Shown piece by piece: positions 48,832 to 56,225 of a DNA stretch of 64,000 bases. Origin of the DNA: Phyllosticta citribraziliensis (Eukaryota); the NCBI RefSeq assembly GCF_038025025.1, contig NW_027117338.1, positions 1 through 64,000 of the forward strand, read 5' to 3'. A model generated the notes under the pieces. The model saw only the letters and a list, made by a program, of their open reading frames with translations, made no database searches and was not told the DNA's origin. Numbering within the stretch: the first letter of the stretch is position 1; each line of letters opens with the position of its first letter. Made by a program: the position numbers and the translations under genes.

Positions 48832-49771
48832 ATGACGGAGCCGACGGTCAAGGAGTTTGCGTCCTTCGCCGTTGTACCCGCGTACTTCATCTCTCTGGCC
48901 GTCTACCGTTGGTCCCTCAGCCCGGATAGACAGTCGCTTTGGCCACTGACTTTGACATTAGAATGGATCTTGACACTCCTCGACGTCGTCTTCATACGCC
49001 GTGATCTGAGACTGCTGCTCGACGTCCCCAAACTCAAATCGTACGCGTTTGGGCGCTTCTGGAATAAATATGGTAGGTCAAATCGGACAGCATCGGCTTC
49101 AACAACTTACAAGTCCAGGCGACTTCATGTCTGCGGATATGCCCCCGGAAACGACGCGGCTGCTTTCGACAGTCCGCGGCACAATCCTCGACGTCGGTCC
49201 CGGCACTGGCGACCAGCTCTGCCACTTTGACTCTGCCAAAATCACTAGGGCTTACGGAGTCGAGCCCACGACCAATCTGCACGAGAAGCTGCGCTTCAAC
49301 GCCAAAAAGGCCGGCCTAGGAGAAAAGTACACGGTGCTGGGCGCCGGCGCGGAACCCGAGAGCTTGATTCCGGCCTTGGCCAAGGAAGGAGTGCTGGCTG
49401 ACGGCGCCGGCGAGGGCATCTTTGACGAGATTGTCGTGGTGCGCTGCCTATGCCACATGCCCAAGCCGAGAGAGTCGCTCGACACCATGTATCGGCTCTT
49501 GAAGCCTGGCGGGAGGTTGGTGACGCACGAGCACGTGTGCAACCCGTGGGGCAAGGAGATTGGAGGCAGCTTCATGTCGTTGGTGTTGCAGTACCTTTAC
49601 GTCTACCCTTGGGAATTCTTCATCAACTGCAGGCTGAACCAGGACACGCGGAAGATGCTGTTCAACACCGGAGGCAGAGACGGGTCTGGGTGGTCTGAGA
49701 TCCATTTGGAGCATTTGCTGCCGTGGAGCACGCTTCCCACCCTCGTTGGGTATCTGATCAAAAAGACGTAG
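48832..49771 (+). CDS. Class I SAM-dependent methyltransferase (METTL7-like) with N-terminal hydrophobic segment
   Basis: ILDVGPGTG motif I, YGVEP, FDEIV...LCH and LLKPGGRL. One intron. Confidence 0.88.
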
Positions 49772-50800: not shown

Positions 50801-52342
50801 ATGTCGTGGAAGAAGAGCGAGAAGCTGATGGACACCATTAAGCACTACGCCAGCTTCCCGGCTACCGGCGTTAGTCTGAGGCAGATGGTCCAGTTTGGCC
50901 AGAGACCTTCGACAGGTTTGACGCCTCCTCAGCCTCCGCCTTGCTCTCTTCTGACAGACAATCCAGGAACCCTGTTCCGCGCCTCACAGTTTCTCTCCGA
51001 GGAGCTTCCCATTCGCCTTGCCCATCGCGTGCAGGAGCTCAACGAGTTGCCCGATGGCCTAAGCGAAATGCCCTCGATCAAGAGGGTTCAGGACTGGTAC
51101 GCCCAGTCTTTCGAGGTGTGTTGCCAAATCCGAGTCGCAATTCGAGACGCTTGCTCACTCGACATCGTATGACAGGAGCTCGTTACCATGTCGCGGCCCT
51201 CGATATCCCAAGAGGTGCGCCAGCGCCTCATTGCGCCGTCCAAGCGGAATAGGGAATCAAGAATTCTCAGCCAAACGACGCAAAATCCAAGCGTCAGAGC
51301 TGGACAGTACAGATCGGCGCCGCCGGAGCCCGAGGAGAATGGAAATGGCAACGGCCATGGCAAGATTGCCTCGCAAAAGAGATATTTCGTAGCGTCGGAC
51401 GGCCTGGAAGACTGGCCGCCGGAGCTCAACCAGTACAACATCAGATTCGCCCAGGTCCTCGAAAGAATCAAGCGGCGGCACGACAGTGTGGTGACGACAG
51501 TTGGTGAGTACGTACAAATCGGGCGGAGCGCGGCTCCTAACACCAACCAGCGCAGGGCATCCTTGAATACAAGCGCAAGCGCCAACGAATGCAAATCGAC
51601 CACAACATCCAGGCCTTTTTGGACCGCTTTTACATGTCGCGCATCGGGATAAGAATGCTCATCGGACAGCACATTGCCTTGACTGACCAAAGACAACGAA
51701 GCGATCCAAACTACGTGGGCATCATATGCACAAAAACCAACGTCCGGGATCTGGCCATGGAAGCCATTGAAAATGCACGGTTTGTCTGCGAGGACCACTA
51801 CGGCCTGTTCGAAGCACCCAAAATCCAGCTCATCTGCGACCCAAACATCCACTTCATGTACGTCCCAGGGCACCTGTCGCACATGCTGTTCGAGACGTTG
51901 AAGAACTCGCTCCGCGCCGTCGTGGAGCGCCACGGCCAGGACAAGGAGGAGTTCCCCGTGACCAAGGTCATTGTTGCCGAGGGCAAGGAGGACATTACCA
52001 TCAAAATCTCGGACGAGGGCGGCGGGATCCCGCGCAGCGCCATTCCGCTTGTATGGACCTACATGTACACGACCGTTGACCAAACGCCGAATCTGGATCC
52101 TGATTTCAACAAAAGCGACTTCAAGGCGCCCATGGCCGGATTCGGGTACGGGCTGCCCATCAGTAGGCTGTACGCGCGGTACTTTGGCGGCGACTTGAAG
52201 CTGATTAGCATGGAGGGGTGAGTCAATTACGCTGATCTATTTCACGTACAACAACAGACACATCTAACGCGCCAACAGCTACGGAACCGACGTATACCTG
52301 CACCTGAACCGGCTCTCGTCGTCGTCGGAGCCGCTGCAATGA
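50801..52342 (+). CDS. pkp1: Pyruvate dehydrogenase kinase (PDK/BCKDK family)
   Basis: Five exons. ELPIRLAHR, FLDRFYMSRIGIRML, ETLKNSLRA, ISDEGGGIP, MAGFGYGLPISRLYARYFGGDL and GYGTDVYLHL...EPLQ*. Confidence 0.93.
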
Positions 52343-52642
52343 CAACTGCCAGTCATGAGGAGCGATTGGATGCGAAGTGCACGCAACAACAGCAGTAGCA
52401 ACGGCGGCGGAAGTTATTACAGCTCGACCAAATCCATGCTCCAAGGATTGACGCGGCAGAAATCGGTCAGCGCGCAGAGTCAGGCGCTCGCCATGGCGTC
52501 GCGCGTCAAGCGCCTCAAGGTCGACCCCGACATGGAGGAGCGGGCGTTGTGGGAGGTCAGCGAGCGCCGGCAGGTGGGCGACGCCGAGGCCCTGTTGCAA
52601 GGGGCCTGGTGGCGCAAGGTGGGGATCGAGGAGGGGGTGTGA
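52343..52642 (+). CDS. Candidate in-frame readthrough extension of PDK (99 codons), or small downstream ORF (ATG 52355)
   Basis: Same frame as the PDK stop, open for 99 codons, with coding-like G/C-ending codons in its second half. Confidence 0.45.
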   Translation, partial: QLPVMRSDWMRSARNNSSSNGGGSYYSSTKSMLQGLTRQKSVSAQSQALAMASRVKRLKVDPDMEERALWEVSERRQVGDAEALLQGAWWRKVGIEEGV

Positions 52643-52699
52643 CGGCGACGGCCGTTGATGACGATGATGTAGTTGTGGTGGTGGTGGGTGTCGTTTATG

Positions 52700-54350
52700 T
52701 TTTCAGCTATCCGTTTTTCTCTCTCTTTCAACGGGCGGGGTCCAATGTCCAATGACGTTCTCTTTTCGTTCTTGGGGGGTTTGGTTGTTGCCGTGTACCG
52801 CCTCGCGACCCCTACTTTTCTCTTTTCTCCTTTCTCCCTTCCCCCCTTTTCCTCCCCTTTTCTTTTCTCTTCTTCTTCTTCTTCGTCGTCTCACCTCCTC
52901 CCTCCTCGTCCTCGTCCTCTCGGCGGCTCAGCAAGGAATCATCCCTTGGGTGGTGCACAGGTACATGTATGTAGGAGGGAGTCGTTTAGGATGTTGGACA
53001 CTTCTTCTATCTATTTGTCTTTTTTTCCCTTTTCCCGGGTGTTTTGTTTTGTTTTGTTTTGTCGTCGCGTCTCGTCTCGTCTCGCGCAAATTGGGTTTGG
53101 TTCTTGTCCGGTTGCGCACCCATCCTACTACCTCCATACCTATCTACTTACTTACCTACCTACCCACTTACCTATCGTACGTACGTACGTACCGTACCGT
53201 AACATGCGTACGCCGCTTTGGATCTCGCCTCTTCTCTCTCTCTCTCTATTTCTGTTCTTTCGCTTCGCGTTTCCTTCTCTTCTCCTTTTTTTTTTTTTTT
53301 TTTTTTTTTGGTCACCGTGTCGTTGCTGGCAGGTTGCAGGTTGCAGGTTACAAATTGCAGAATGAGATGTGTGTAGCTGGCTGACTGGCTGTGCGGTGGG
53401 GAGGGATGAGCACAGTGCAATACAGCCAGTTGCGTGAGACTGGAAAAATAAAGGACAGACGGACGGGCGGACAGGCATGGCTGAGTACTCCGGCTGTAGA
53501 TTGTACGTGATTGAATAGGTGGGGTGGGATGGGATGGGCAGTCTAGGCAGGATAGGATTGGCAGGGCATCACGAGTAGGTGGGTGGGTGTGTAGGGTGGA
53601 AAGGGTAGGGTAGGGCATGAGGCATCTACCAACGCATTATGCATCGATTCAGCAGTTCAGCAGTTCAGCACTTTGTCTACGTGAACGGCAGCTTTGTCGT
53701 GCATGCATGTTGAAGTCTCACGGCGGGACGGCATGACGCCATTTAATGAGCCAGTCAATCAGTCTAATTTGATACAGATACAGTATAACCCCCATATTTT
53801 CCTTGCTCCCCCTATCCCATCACGTCACACCATATAACAGCAACCACCTGAGGTATGTGTACATACATACATATTTATTCATTCGCTCCTGATGCAGTCA
53901 CTCACTGCTCAACTATCCCTCCATCCATCCACGCATGCATTCACCGACCACCTCAACCCACCCATCACAGCCGTCTTTTTCGCCGCCAAAGGGAAAAAAA
54001 AGCATCGAGAAAAGGAAAAAGTGAAAGCGCATAAATATATCCCGAGACCCAAGAAACTCCCACCATCAAGTAGAGAAAAAGGAAAATCGTAGGAAAATCC
54101 GCTGACGGGCTGGCTCACTGGCTCACTGACTCACTGGCTTGCCAGGGGCAGCAGCAGCAGCAACAGCAGCCACGCACCCACGAGACGCTTCTCATCTCTC
54201 TCTCTCTCTCTCTTTCTCTTGCATGCATCCATCCGTCGTCGTGACATGGAAAAAAGACCAAACCCCCATTTTTGATGTTTTAGTTCGGTGGTGAGTGGTG
54301 AAGTCGCGTCTCAACGACCAATCAACCAACCAACCAACCGAACGATCGTC
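52700..54350. repeat. Microsatellite-rich, low-complexity intergenic region between convergent PDK and homocitrate synthase
   Basis: (TTTTG)n, (CTCGT)n, (TACC)n, (GTAC)n, (TC)n, poly-T at about 53285-53308, (GGGAT)n, (CAG)n and (AACC)n. Confidence 0.85.
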
Positions 54351-54471: not shown

Positions 54472-56225
54472 CTATGCGGCGACCTTGGCCTTCTTGGCCG
54501 CCGGAGCAGCGTCGGCCTCGGCCTCCTGCTCGAGGGCCCTCTTCTCGCCCTCGCCCGAGAGCTGCCTCTCGGCCTCCTCGAACTTGGCCTGCTCCTCCTC
54601 GGTGAGGTCGGCGATGAGCGGCTTCTCCTCCTTGGAGTGCAGGTTGAGGTGGAAGGTGCGGATGATGGAGTCGGCGTCGTCGATGGCGATGGGGCGCACG
54701 TCGGCGAGGGCCTTGATCTTGGCCGTGACGAGCTTGATCTGCGCGTCCGTCATCTCCAGGCCGAGCTGCTCGACGCGGCTCTTGATGGCGTTCCAGCCCG
54801 TCAGCCGCGACGCAAAGTGCACGTAGCGGCTCATGCCGAAGTCGGCCGGGTTGATGATCTCGTACGTGCTGGGGTTGTTGAGGATGGCCTTGGCGTGGAT
54901 GCCGGCCTTGTGGGTGAAGGCGCAGAATCCGGTGATGTAGTTGTTGAAGGGGATGTTGATTTGCACGGCCTCGGCGACCATGTCCTCAATCTCCTTGAGC
55001 TTGTGCAGCTTGTACTTGCCCGTGACGTAGTCGTGGTCGGCGACGATCATGCGGGCCATGAGACCACCGAGAGGAGTGATGCCGTTGCGCTCACCGATAC
55101 CAATGACGGAGGTGTCAATGTGGGTGGCACCGGCCTCGAGGGCGCAGTAGGCGTTGGCTGGATCAAATTAGCGACATTCGGGTCCTCGAATCCAAGAGAC
55201 TCACCAATAGCGCAGCCAGTGTCGTTGTGGAAGTGCGTCTCAATGTCGCAGCTGACAACACCCCTCAGAGTACGGACGAGGTCGTAGACCTGGCGAGGAG
55301 AGGCGCACCCGACGGTGTCGGCAATACCGACTCTGCCAACGCCAACCTTGTCGACAGCCGAGTAGATGGAGAGCAGGTCGACGAGGTCGGAACGGAACGA
55401 GTCTTCGGAGGAGAAGCGGATCTCGAGGCCCTTGGACTTGACAAACTCGATGACTTCAATGGCGGCCTGCGCCTGTTAGCAACGTCCAACCAGATGCAGT
55501 CGCTCAACTTACATTCTTGATGTAGGTCATGTCCTTGCCGTGCGAGTGCTCCCTCAGGTACGACGAGGTACCAATGACGACGTCGACACCATCGACACCG
55601 GTCTCGACGGCCAGCCTGGCGTCGTCCATGTGGCAACGGACGTGGGTGAGAATCTTGGCCTATTTCTTTGTCAACGCCACGCACACAAGGGCGGCGGCGG
55701 CGGGCGAGCTCTCACCTTGAGGCCGAGCTTGCAAATGGCCTCGCAGTCGAGGCGAGACTGCTCCGAGGCGGCGGGCGAGGTGAGCTCAATGTAGTCGACG
55801 CCAAAGTCGTCGAGGGCCTTGGCAATCCTGATCTTGGTCTCGGTGTCGAAAAAGGCATTGGCAAACTGCTCGCCCTCTCGCAGGGTGCTCTCGATGATCT
55901 TGAAGCGCGAGACGTTGCTGAGGAAGTCGCCCACGGGCTGGTAGGGGTTCGAGGGCCGCGGGTGCGGGTTCTGGGCAGTCTGCGGCAAAGAAAAAAAGTC
56001 AGAGGAGGGTTTGGTTTCGGAGTTTCAAGGCTGGCGCGACGTACGCGAATGCCAGTGAAGCCGGGGTGCGAGGCTGCAGTGGGCGAGAGGTTAGAAGACA
56101 CTGACTTGGTCATTTTGGGCTATGACGGCATTGGACGTACAGTCGGCACCGTTGGTGCCGTTTTGATGGCCGTTTTGGTGGCCATTGACGCCGTTGGTGG
56201 CGGGGGGATTGGCGGAGGGGCTCAT
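54472..56225 (-). CDS. LYS20: Homocitrate synthase
   Basis: Multi-exon, including a 29-nt microexon at 56073-56045. [31 protein letters not shown] and C-terminal NLS-like PAAKKAK. Confidence 0.95.

Follow-up and report, generated by a model that had tools for sequence, protein, structure and literature searches.

Probable programmed readthrough of a pyruvate dehydrogenase kinase stop codon in filamentous fungi, with a covarying kink-turn-pattern stem behind the stop

Readthrough of stop codons in fungi reportedly yields peroxisomal isoforms, as Freitag et al. are said to have described in 2012. The weakening of termination by CAA ahead of the stop codon and CAR-NBA behind it is established in work on viruses and yeast; the hexamer CARYYA functions also at UGA and UAA, and 5' adenosines are favourable (PMC3542737, PMC4132726). 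The mechanism by which 3' structures promote readthrough was stated to be unknown in a 2012 review (PMC3542737). Here, we describe a pyruvate dehydrogenase kinase (PDK) gene on the forward strand of a 64,000-nucleotide stretch of the Phyllosticta citribraziliensis genome (contig NW_027117338.1, positions 1 to 64,000; hereafter the window), whose stop codon is followed by a conserved in-frame tail. The comparison of related loci indicates that programmed readthrough of this stop very probably yields a kinase about 100 residues longer. What is new is that a type I leaky stop in the gene of a core metabolic kinase is followed by a covarying stem of kink-turn (k-turn) consensus.

The PDK gene (50801..52342, forward strand; BCDHK_Adom3 and HATPase_c domains) has five exons and four spliced joints, and spliced RNA contigs place the exons at 50801-50915, 50967-51115, 51176-51503, 51551-52217 and 52279-52342. 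Once spliced it comprises 440 codons and a stop, the same length as protein P0002, and the 440 amino acid protein ends in SSSSEPLQ directly before TGA. Exon 4 shows 100% identity with Phyllosticta PDKs, and the gene family matches human PDK3 at E 4e-81 (P0025). The genome has two further PDK paralogues, which match BCKDK better and lack both the leaky context and the tail. By sequence, the window gene is the Phyllosticta paralogue nearest to human PDK1-4.

The kinase frame ends in CAA-TGA-CAA-CTG (52337..52348, forward strand, with the TGA at 52340-52342), and the same frame stays open for 99 codons, up to a second TGA at 52640-52642 (tail, 52343..52642, forward strand). Both features had been claimed in an earlier note on this DNA and are present in the letters of the window, with the translation as given there. 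The note had also stated that CAACTG matches CARYYA at five of six positions, which is correct; the full type I hexamer is thus not present in the window, where G stands at +9. Relatives carry CAA/CAG-stop-CAR-YNA, and G at +9 is seen in the window alone. The G/C-ending codons that the note pointed to are borne out by a G+C content at third codon positions (GC3) of 0.84, the third highest among 312 window frames of 95 or more codons. GC3 rises from 0.67 in the first third of the tail to 0.96 in its last 50 codons, and the value at second positions (GC2) is 0.49. The nearby AG at 52351-52352 cannot join this frame, as claimed, given the phase-2 donor of intron 4. An open frame of 99 codons is in itself nothing unusual: it survives in 881 of 20,000 base shuffles, and of the 3,302 stop-to-stop segments in the window 282, real genes among them, are at least this long. 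The tail stands above chance because it is conserved in other fungi, not because its frame is open.

Conservation was followed in loci collected from metagenome contigs through the last PDK exon only, so that the tail played no part in their selection. Including the window, the survey gave at least 113 matches, at least 96 of them distinct; all locus counts given here rest on the matches listed and cover related loci, which are not independent events. Three loci cut by contig ends (L052, L056, L067) and one copy of a duplicated contig (L078) were left out, leaving 92 usable loci. In L078 the contig has a duplicated PDK 3' end, probably by misassembly, and the first copy was the one left out of the counts. 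An in-frame tail is found in 77 of the 92 loci, in 75 directly and in two once an intron is removed, and 15 loci have no tail. Named proteins carrying the tail come from Dothideomycetes, Sordariomycetes, Leotiomycetes and Eurotiomycetes. A quick tree of exon 4, which we used for lineage labels only where a tail had no named-protein match, adds lichen-type fungi with weak support (6 of 124 branches are well supported). On this comparison, the stop context, the RNA stem and the tail are kept in at least four classes of filamentous fungi. The core motif of the tail is found in 17 of 120 listed PDK homologues, attached to the kinase by varying predicted introns, and 38 of the 39 matches to the tail profile among longer proteins are PDK models. 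None of the database proteins compared has a sense codon at the PDK stop position. In one model from Fonsecaea nubica (P0265), the annotation has fused the tail to a CorA-like neighbour rather than to PDK.

The stop itself is exchangeable, the 77 tail loci having TAG 34 times, TGA 28 times and TAA 15 times. The surrounding context is not. CAR-NBA follows the stop in 74 of the 77 tail-bearing loci but in 0 of the 15 others; as background, it follows 20 of the 3,308 stop triplets of the window. The stricter CARYYA is present in 57 of the 77, and the exact sequence CAA-UAG-CAA-UUA occurs at 15 distinct loci. CAA precedes the stop in 64 of the 77 tail loci and in all 34 in which the stop is TAG, while the glutamine codons of the upstream exon are CAA 194 times and CAG 257 times, and the glutamine-ending loci without a tail have CAG in 8 of 8 cases. 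That context and tail occur together or vanish together supports readthrough, and readthrough would in turn account for the context, the frame, the swapping of stops and the way in which signal and tail are kept or lost as one. The programmed readthrough proposed in the earlier note is thus supported, the identity of the stop varying while context, frame and tail protein are kept. Across the 77 loci, kinship included, CAG before the stop goes with TGA in 11 of 12 cases and CGA at +7 to +9 goes with TGA in 16 of 17, as if weaker contexts were tolerated only at the leakiest stop.

The tail protein is preserved across large insertions and deletions, which leave the frame intact in complete tails of 53-120 codons. 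Its most conserved part is a core motif, EVSERRQVGDAE (52553..52588, forward strand), in which E, R, Q, V, G and D are invariant in 62 aligned tails, out of 68 that are complete, while their codons vary freely. Within this core (EVSERRQVGD, with invariant E..R.QVGD) synonymous difference (pS) is 0.87 and non-synonymous difference (pN) 0.13, values similar to the 0.74 and 0.10 of the last ten PDK codons. On this substitution pattern the core is under selection at the protein level; conservation of frame and stop context, which the earlier note had suggested testing among relatives, is found as well (tail in 77 of 92 loci, CAR-NBA in 74 of the 77). Ahead of the core lies a basic segment, in the window MASRVKRLKV (52493..52522, forward strand), the 20 residues before the core having a mean net charge of +4.5 over 75 distinct tails. 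A C-terminal motif, WW[RK]xVxxEEGx (52607..52639, forward strand), is present in about half of the tails, those of Dothideomycete type.

Two stretches of the tail are conserved as nucleotides rather than as protein. Val is encoded by GTC in 66 of 67 cases, Arg by AGR in 70 of 72 and Gly by GGA in 68 of 71; the same residues within the core motif use all of their codons, and pS in the two stretches is low (0.36 and 0.38). These stretches can pair with each other as GUCA-U-GA-GGGA with UCCC-AAG-GA-U-UGAC in the consensus, forming a stem that begins 9 nt past the stop; this structure had escaped the earlier note. In the window, the predicted 5' (non-bulged) arm of a k-turn occupies 52352..52364 (forward strand) and consists of GUCA (non-canonical, NC, helix), U (position 3n), GA (2n, 1n) and GGAGCG (canonical, C, helix). 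The predicted 3' (bulged) arm occupies 52437..52452 (forward strand), with UGCUCC (C helix), the bulge AAG, GA (1b, 2b), U (3b) and UGAC (NC helix). The full k-turn pattern, a 3-nt bulge and tandem G·A/A·G pairs between two helices, is complete in 67 of 75 loci, the window included, and in 67 of 67 it starts at +10, although the loops range from 3 to 91 nt. Over the 75 loci, 2n is G in 72, 1n is A in 72, 1b is G in 72 and 2b is A in 69; the -1b:-1n pair is C:G in 67 of 67 and 3b·3n is U·U in 51 of 67. U·U at this position belongs to the middle-folding class of k-turns (PMC4382518, PMC5689011). Synonymous randomisation leaves a mean of 2.2 k-turns per 75 loci (maximum 6), and the pattern is found in 0 of the 15 listed loci without a tail.

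The pairing is recovered without prompting. RNAalifold returns the same eight pairs, five of them with two-sided changes (0 of 500 shuffles), and the true register is 99% paired, against 29-58% in slid controls. The window has a compensated C helix of its own, GGAGC/GCUCC, and RNAfold places both helices there. It also lengthens the stem by a CUGCC/GGCAG helix (52346-52350 with 52455-52459) that takes in the unusual G at +9; this extension was not seen to be conserved among relatives. Two loci, L093 and L048, have a GT..AG intron 15 nt past the stop, between the G and the A of the 5' arm (139 and 100 nt, with branch sites CTGAC and CTAAC; the acceptor in L048 is AAG). Since this intron divides the 5' arm, frame and k-turn exist in these loci in the spliced mRNA only. 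The covariation shows that the pairing of the two arms is real, and the sequence pattern within it suggests a kinked fold. In the same genome, a scan that started from the 5' pattern, and from which a k-turn of other sequence would escape, gave 31 matches; among the 30 examined, a strong model score was found at the PDK site only and a k-turn in 0 of the 29 non-PDK sites. Six loci compared with Rfam gave no match at E<=1. At L006, a locus placed with Sordariomycetes, the kinase ends EPLP-TAA, context and tail are gone and a remnant of the 3' arm, GGATTGACG, stays in place, which is likely to represent a recent loss of context and tail.

Transcript evidence places stop and tail on one message. 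We took X1 and X2 as RNA runs, a guess that rests on their contigs skipping introns; X8 is an RNA run of a relative. Spliced contigs of all three show only the four normal introns on the PDK gene. A contig of X1 (51281-53221, 1,920 nt) holds the stop and the whole tail without differing letters, and since it spans both stops, the mRNA covers the second; the question raised in the earlier note, whether the message reaches 52642, is answered by its continuing to 53221. The rest of the 3' untranslated region (52643..53523, forward strand) is covered to 53221 by this one spliced contig and to about 53500 by the RNA runs, the contigs themselves being strandless. In X8, a 3-nt insertion lies inside the tail and insertions of 2 nt and 1 nt lie just past the second stop. 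Stop and tail are also found together in 19 distinct metagenome loci that are already spliced. On the contigs of X1 and X8 and in these 19 loci, stop and tail thus share one mature mRNA with no splice that bypasses the stop.

Several observations weigh against readthrough, or against the part that we assign to the stem. The hexamer is broken in L010, in the Colletotrichum-type locus L015 and in the window, by its G at +9, and the CAA-CUG of the window is the sole such case among the 77 listed tail loci, so that readthrough efficiency may be low in these three. The alignment from which pairs were counted (A2) is made up of the window and 39 of the 47 short-loop loci that had beforehand been scored as carrying the k-turn, and kin share their changes; its pair counts therefore lean towards structure. 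The local fold of the window is not unusually stable (z -1.2). The full k-turn is absent from 8 of 75 loci, among them the Fusarium-type L032. RNA contigs conceal rare isoforms and minority edits. Finally, in A. nidulans, PkpC tagged with green fluorescent protein (GFP) restored growth and localised to mitochondria on acetate, and pyruvate dehydrogenase (PDH) activity did not change when PkpC was lost (PMC6027865). If the tag replaced the stop, as the name PkpC::GFP suggests, the tail is not needed for those phenotypes.

Among other explanations, the one that survives best accepts readthrough and ascribes it to the hexamer alone, with the k-turn acting on the stability or localisation of the mRNA or in feedback through an L7Ae-family protein. 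We regard it as a possibility of some standing, though not the favoured one. Signals of the tobacco mosaic virus type need no structure (PMC3542737), and L032, whose tail is identical to that of a Fusarium model (P0275), keeps CAA-TAG-CAA-TTA and the tail while k-turn and all methionines before the core are lost. This locus, with hexamer and tail and no stem, indicates that the stem is dispensable in some lineages. However, a stem held at exactly +10 in 67 of 67 loci despite loops of 3-91 nt, absent from every listed locus without a tail and retained in L015 where the hexamer is broken, speaks against a purpose apart from the stop. A stimulating or regulating role of the stem in readthrough is, on this comparison, the moderately favoured reading, the k-turn starting where the review cited above puts 3' stimulators, about 8 nt past the stop.

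Much less probable is that the tail is translated by itself as a microprotein, starting at ATG 52355 or at a methionine further on through reinitiation or internal initiation, with the k-turn aiding the start. ATG is present at codon 5 in 65 of 75 loci, and 988 short predicted proteins match the tail profile, 110 of the 116 newly listed ones starting with MR, although these are open reading frames drawn by gene callers. The ATG, however, lies within the predicted 5' arm of the k-turn, and it is replaced (ACG, AGG, AAT, CTG, ACT) or deleted in 10 of the 75 loci. Where it is ACG, the change is paired with a matching one on the other arm (3n·3b C·C, 4 loci). L032 has no methionine at all before the core, and the 95 amino acid product from ATG 52355 that the earlier note had put forward does not hold up as the primary reading. 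Independent initiation also leaves unexplained the CAR-NBA context, the bias towards CAA before the stop and the fixed frame with PDK, all of which readthrough accounts for.

Adenosine-to-inosine editing of the stop to UGG during sexual development, which would make the long form as in Fusarium DBF2, is a slighter prospect again. Such editing is known for a hairpin-embedded UAG in Sordariomycetes (PMC13123824), and as most of the loci placed with that class have TAG, it could add to readthrough there. But 43 of the 77 stops are TGA or TAA, of which TAA would need two edits; the stop-loss editing of DBF2 is reported to have arisen in Sordariomycetes (PMC13123824), while the PDK element spans at least four classes and its stop lies outside the conserved stem. 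In the F. graminearum list of 403 stop-loss genes given in that source, no row is annotated with pyruvate, pdk, ketoacid or lipoamide, many of the rows being unannotated. The contigs of X1 and X2 equal the DNA at the TGA stop, which excludes majority editing in those samples only.

The least credible explanation is that an alternative splice joins the intron-4 donor to an acceptor within the tail and skips the stop, as in the 38 fused PDK-tail models of the databases. An in-frame YAG lies ahead of the core in 62 of 88 core-bearing loci, and several Penicillium models use one junction, the AG of ATG-AG. But junctions vary by model and many remove the last conserved kinase strand; 26 of the 88 loci lack the YAG, and the acceptor common to the Penicillium models would read GAG. 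Joints of this kind are absent from the contigs of X1, X2 (depth about 3,000) and X8, and the leaky context is left unexplained.

We propose that readthrough at the PDK stop would proceed by a series of linked steps. CAA ahead of the stop and CAR-NBA behind it would weaken termination, so that a near-cognate tRNA may be accepted at any of the three stops. The stem 9 nt past the stop would then raise or tune readthrough at the mRNA entrance of the ribosome, possibly on binding by an L7Ae-family protein. It is conceivable, if rather unlikely, that the k-turn is a protein-gated switch, in which an L7Ae-family protein (eL30 or Snu13), once bound, induces the fold and determines how often the stop is read through. 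If so, the balance between short and long PDK, and hence the kinase's partner or location, would in filamentous fungi follow the supply of ribosomal proteins or the state of growth, and the switch would represent a k-turn-dependent recoding resembling that of the selenocysteine insertion sequence (SECIS), with standard amino acids and at any stop codon. In the last step, the first 50 tail codons would be there mainly for the RNA structure, and the basic segment and the core would form a short binding or targeting motif, giving the long isoform another partner or location.

Selection on the tail is evident from its substitutions, but what the tail does is the weakest part of the proposal. For a binding or targeting motif we see about an even chance. 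Action by stalling of the nascent chain is unlikely, and a degron, or some other role, each slightly less likely still. A peptide that arrests termination was considered and rejected, as it needs a fixed distance between motif and stop, and here the second stop follows the core D after 12-45 codons, in most tails 16-28; this variation argues against arrest at termination and is still compatible with arrest during elongation. Neither the window tail nor the 62 aligned tails scored above the Pfam cut-off (best E 0.004), the tail profile had no PDB match at E<=10 and the ESM Atlas gave no usable match to the tail. A hydrophobic-moment scan gave a median of 0.49, a value to which, for want of a control, we attach no weight. 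An end resembling the type 1 peroxisomal targeting signal (PTS1) occurs in just 1 of 68 complete tails, the window tail ending EGV, and the classical nuclear localisation signal pattern, in 15 of 75 tails, is not consistent. The fungal PDK stop sits where the C-terminal tail of human PDKs starts; the lack of a PDB match gives no support to homology between the two tails.

PDK governs how carbon enters respiration. A long isoform kept across filamentous ascomycetes, likely to have been missed by genome annotations, would change the reading of its biology. In A. nidulans, PkpC (AN6207) has been named the sole orthologue of the human PDKs, and it is described as cytosolic on glucose and in part mitochondrial on acetate, and was not recovered together with PDH (PMC6027865). 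The window PDK is presumably the orthologue of PkpC, judged from its closeness to the human PDKs rather than from direct comparison with the PkpC sequence. For Neurospora crassa, the supplement of PMC12790415 gives NCU03796 and NCU06760 as PDKs. Tagging the C-terminus at the annotated stop would eliminate the long form, a point of possible relevance to the puzzling behaviour of PkpC. About 12 residues (50801-50836) precede the conserved kinase fold in the window PDK; an in-frame stop is found 10 codons upstream, and there is no obvious mitochondrial presequence, in agreement with the non-mitochondrial prediction published for PkpC. The readthrough tail also accounts for dozens of wrong gene models with invented introns. 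As a compact, naturally varied readthrough cassette (the shortest about 40 nt) with a stimulator of k-turn pattern, the PDK element makes the mechanism of 3' structures testable through well-known k-turn mutations.

The gene lies downstream of a gene for a S-adenosylmethionine-dependent methyltransferase (49010-49771, forward strand; Pfam Methyltransf_23/11). Its convergent neighbour (54472-56024, reverse strand) has a GC3 of 0.92 and by its sequence motifs looks like a homocitrate synthase. Our literature search, with most subscription papers outside its reach, found no report of readthrough of a fungal PDK, and pairing k-turn with readthrough it listed selenoprotein work and unrelated topics.

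Several known systems resemble the PDK element in part. Like the fungal peroxisomal isoforms, it concerns a metabolic enzyme that would gain a C-terminal extension by readthrough; the PDK tail, however, is 53-120 amino acids long with a conserved motif inside it, and a PTS1-like end is nearly absent. With the type I signal (tobamovirus UAG-CAR-YYA, yeast CAR-NBA) the PDK loci share the 5' CAA and the 3' CAR-NBA, but here the signal belongs to a cellular nuclear gene over at least four fungal classes and is joined by a conserved 3' structure, and the window itself deviates by the G at +9. With standard k-turns (Kt-7, box C/D, U4) the element has in common the 3-nt bulge, the tandem G·A/A·G pairs and the C:G pair at -1. 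It differs in lying within translated mRNA directly behind a stop, in a bulge that ends in G and in being unlike box C/D in sequence or order, and its fold is predicted from sequence. SECIS likewise links a putative k-turn with tandem G·A pairs to the recoding of a stop codon, but acts from the 3' untranslated region, at UGA only and for selenocysteine, via SBP2 and EFsec (PMC2761289). The PDK element is fixed at +10, serves any of three stops, has its bulge on the 3' strand and shows no Rfam match to SECIS; recoding for selenocysteine is argued against by TAG or TAA at 49 of the 77 stops and by the lack of an Rfam match in the six loci. A further likeness is to the 3' stem-loop stimulators of readthrough, namely those of alphaviruses and other type II cases, the compact stem-loop of benyviruses and the pseudoknot of gammaretroviruses, which similarly start about 8-9 nt past the stop and tolerate a variable loop (PMC3542737). 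From these, the PDK element is set apart by a core of k-turn pattern with about eight Watson-Crick pairs, by its type I hexamer and by its occurrence with all three stop codons.
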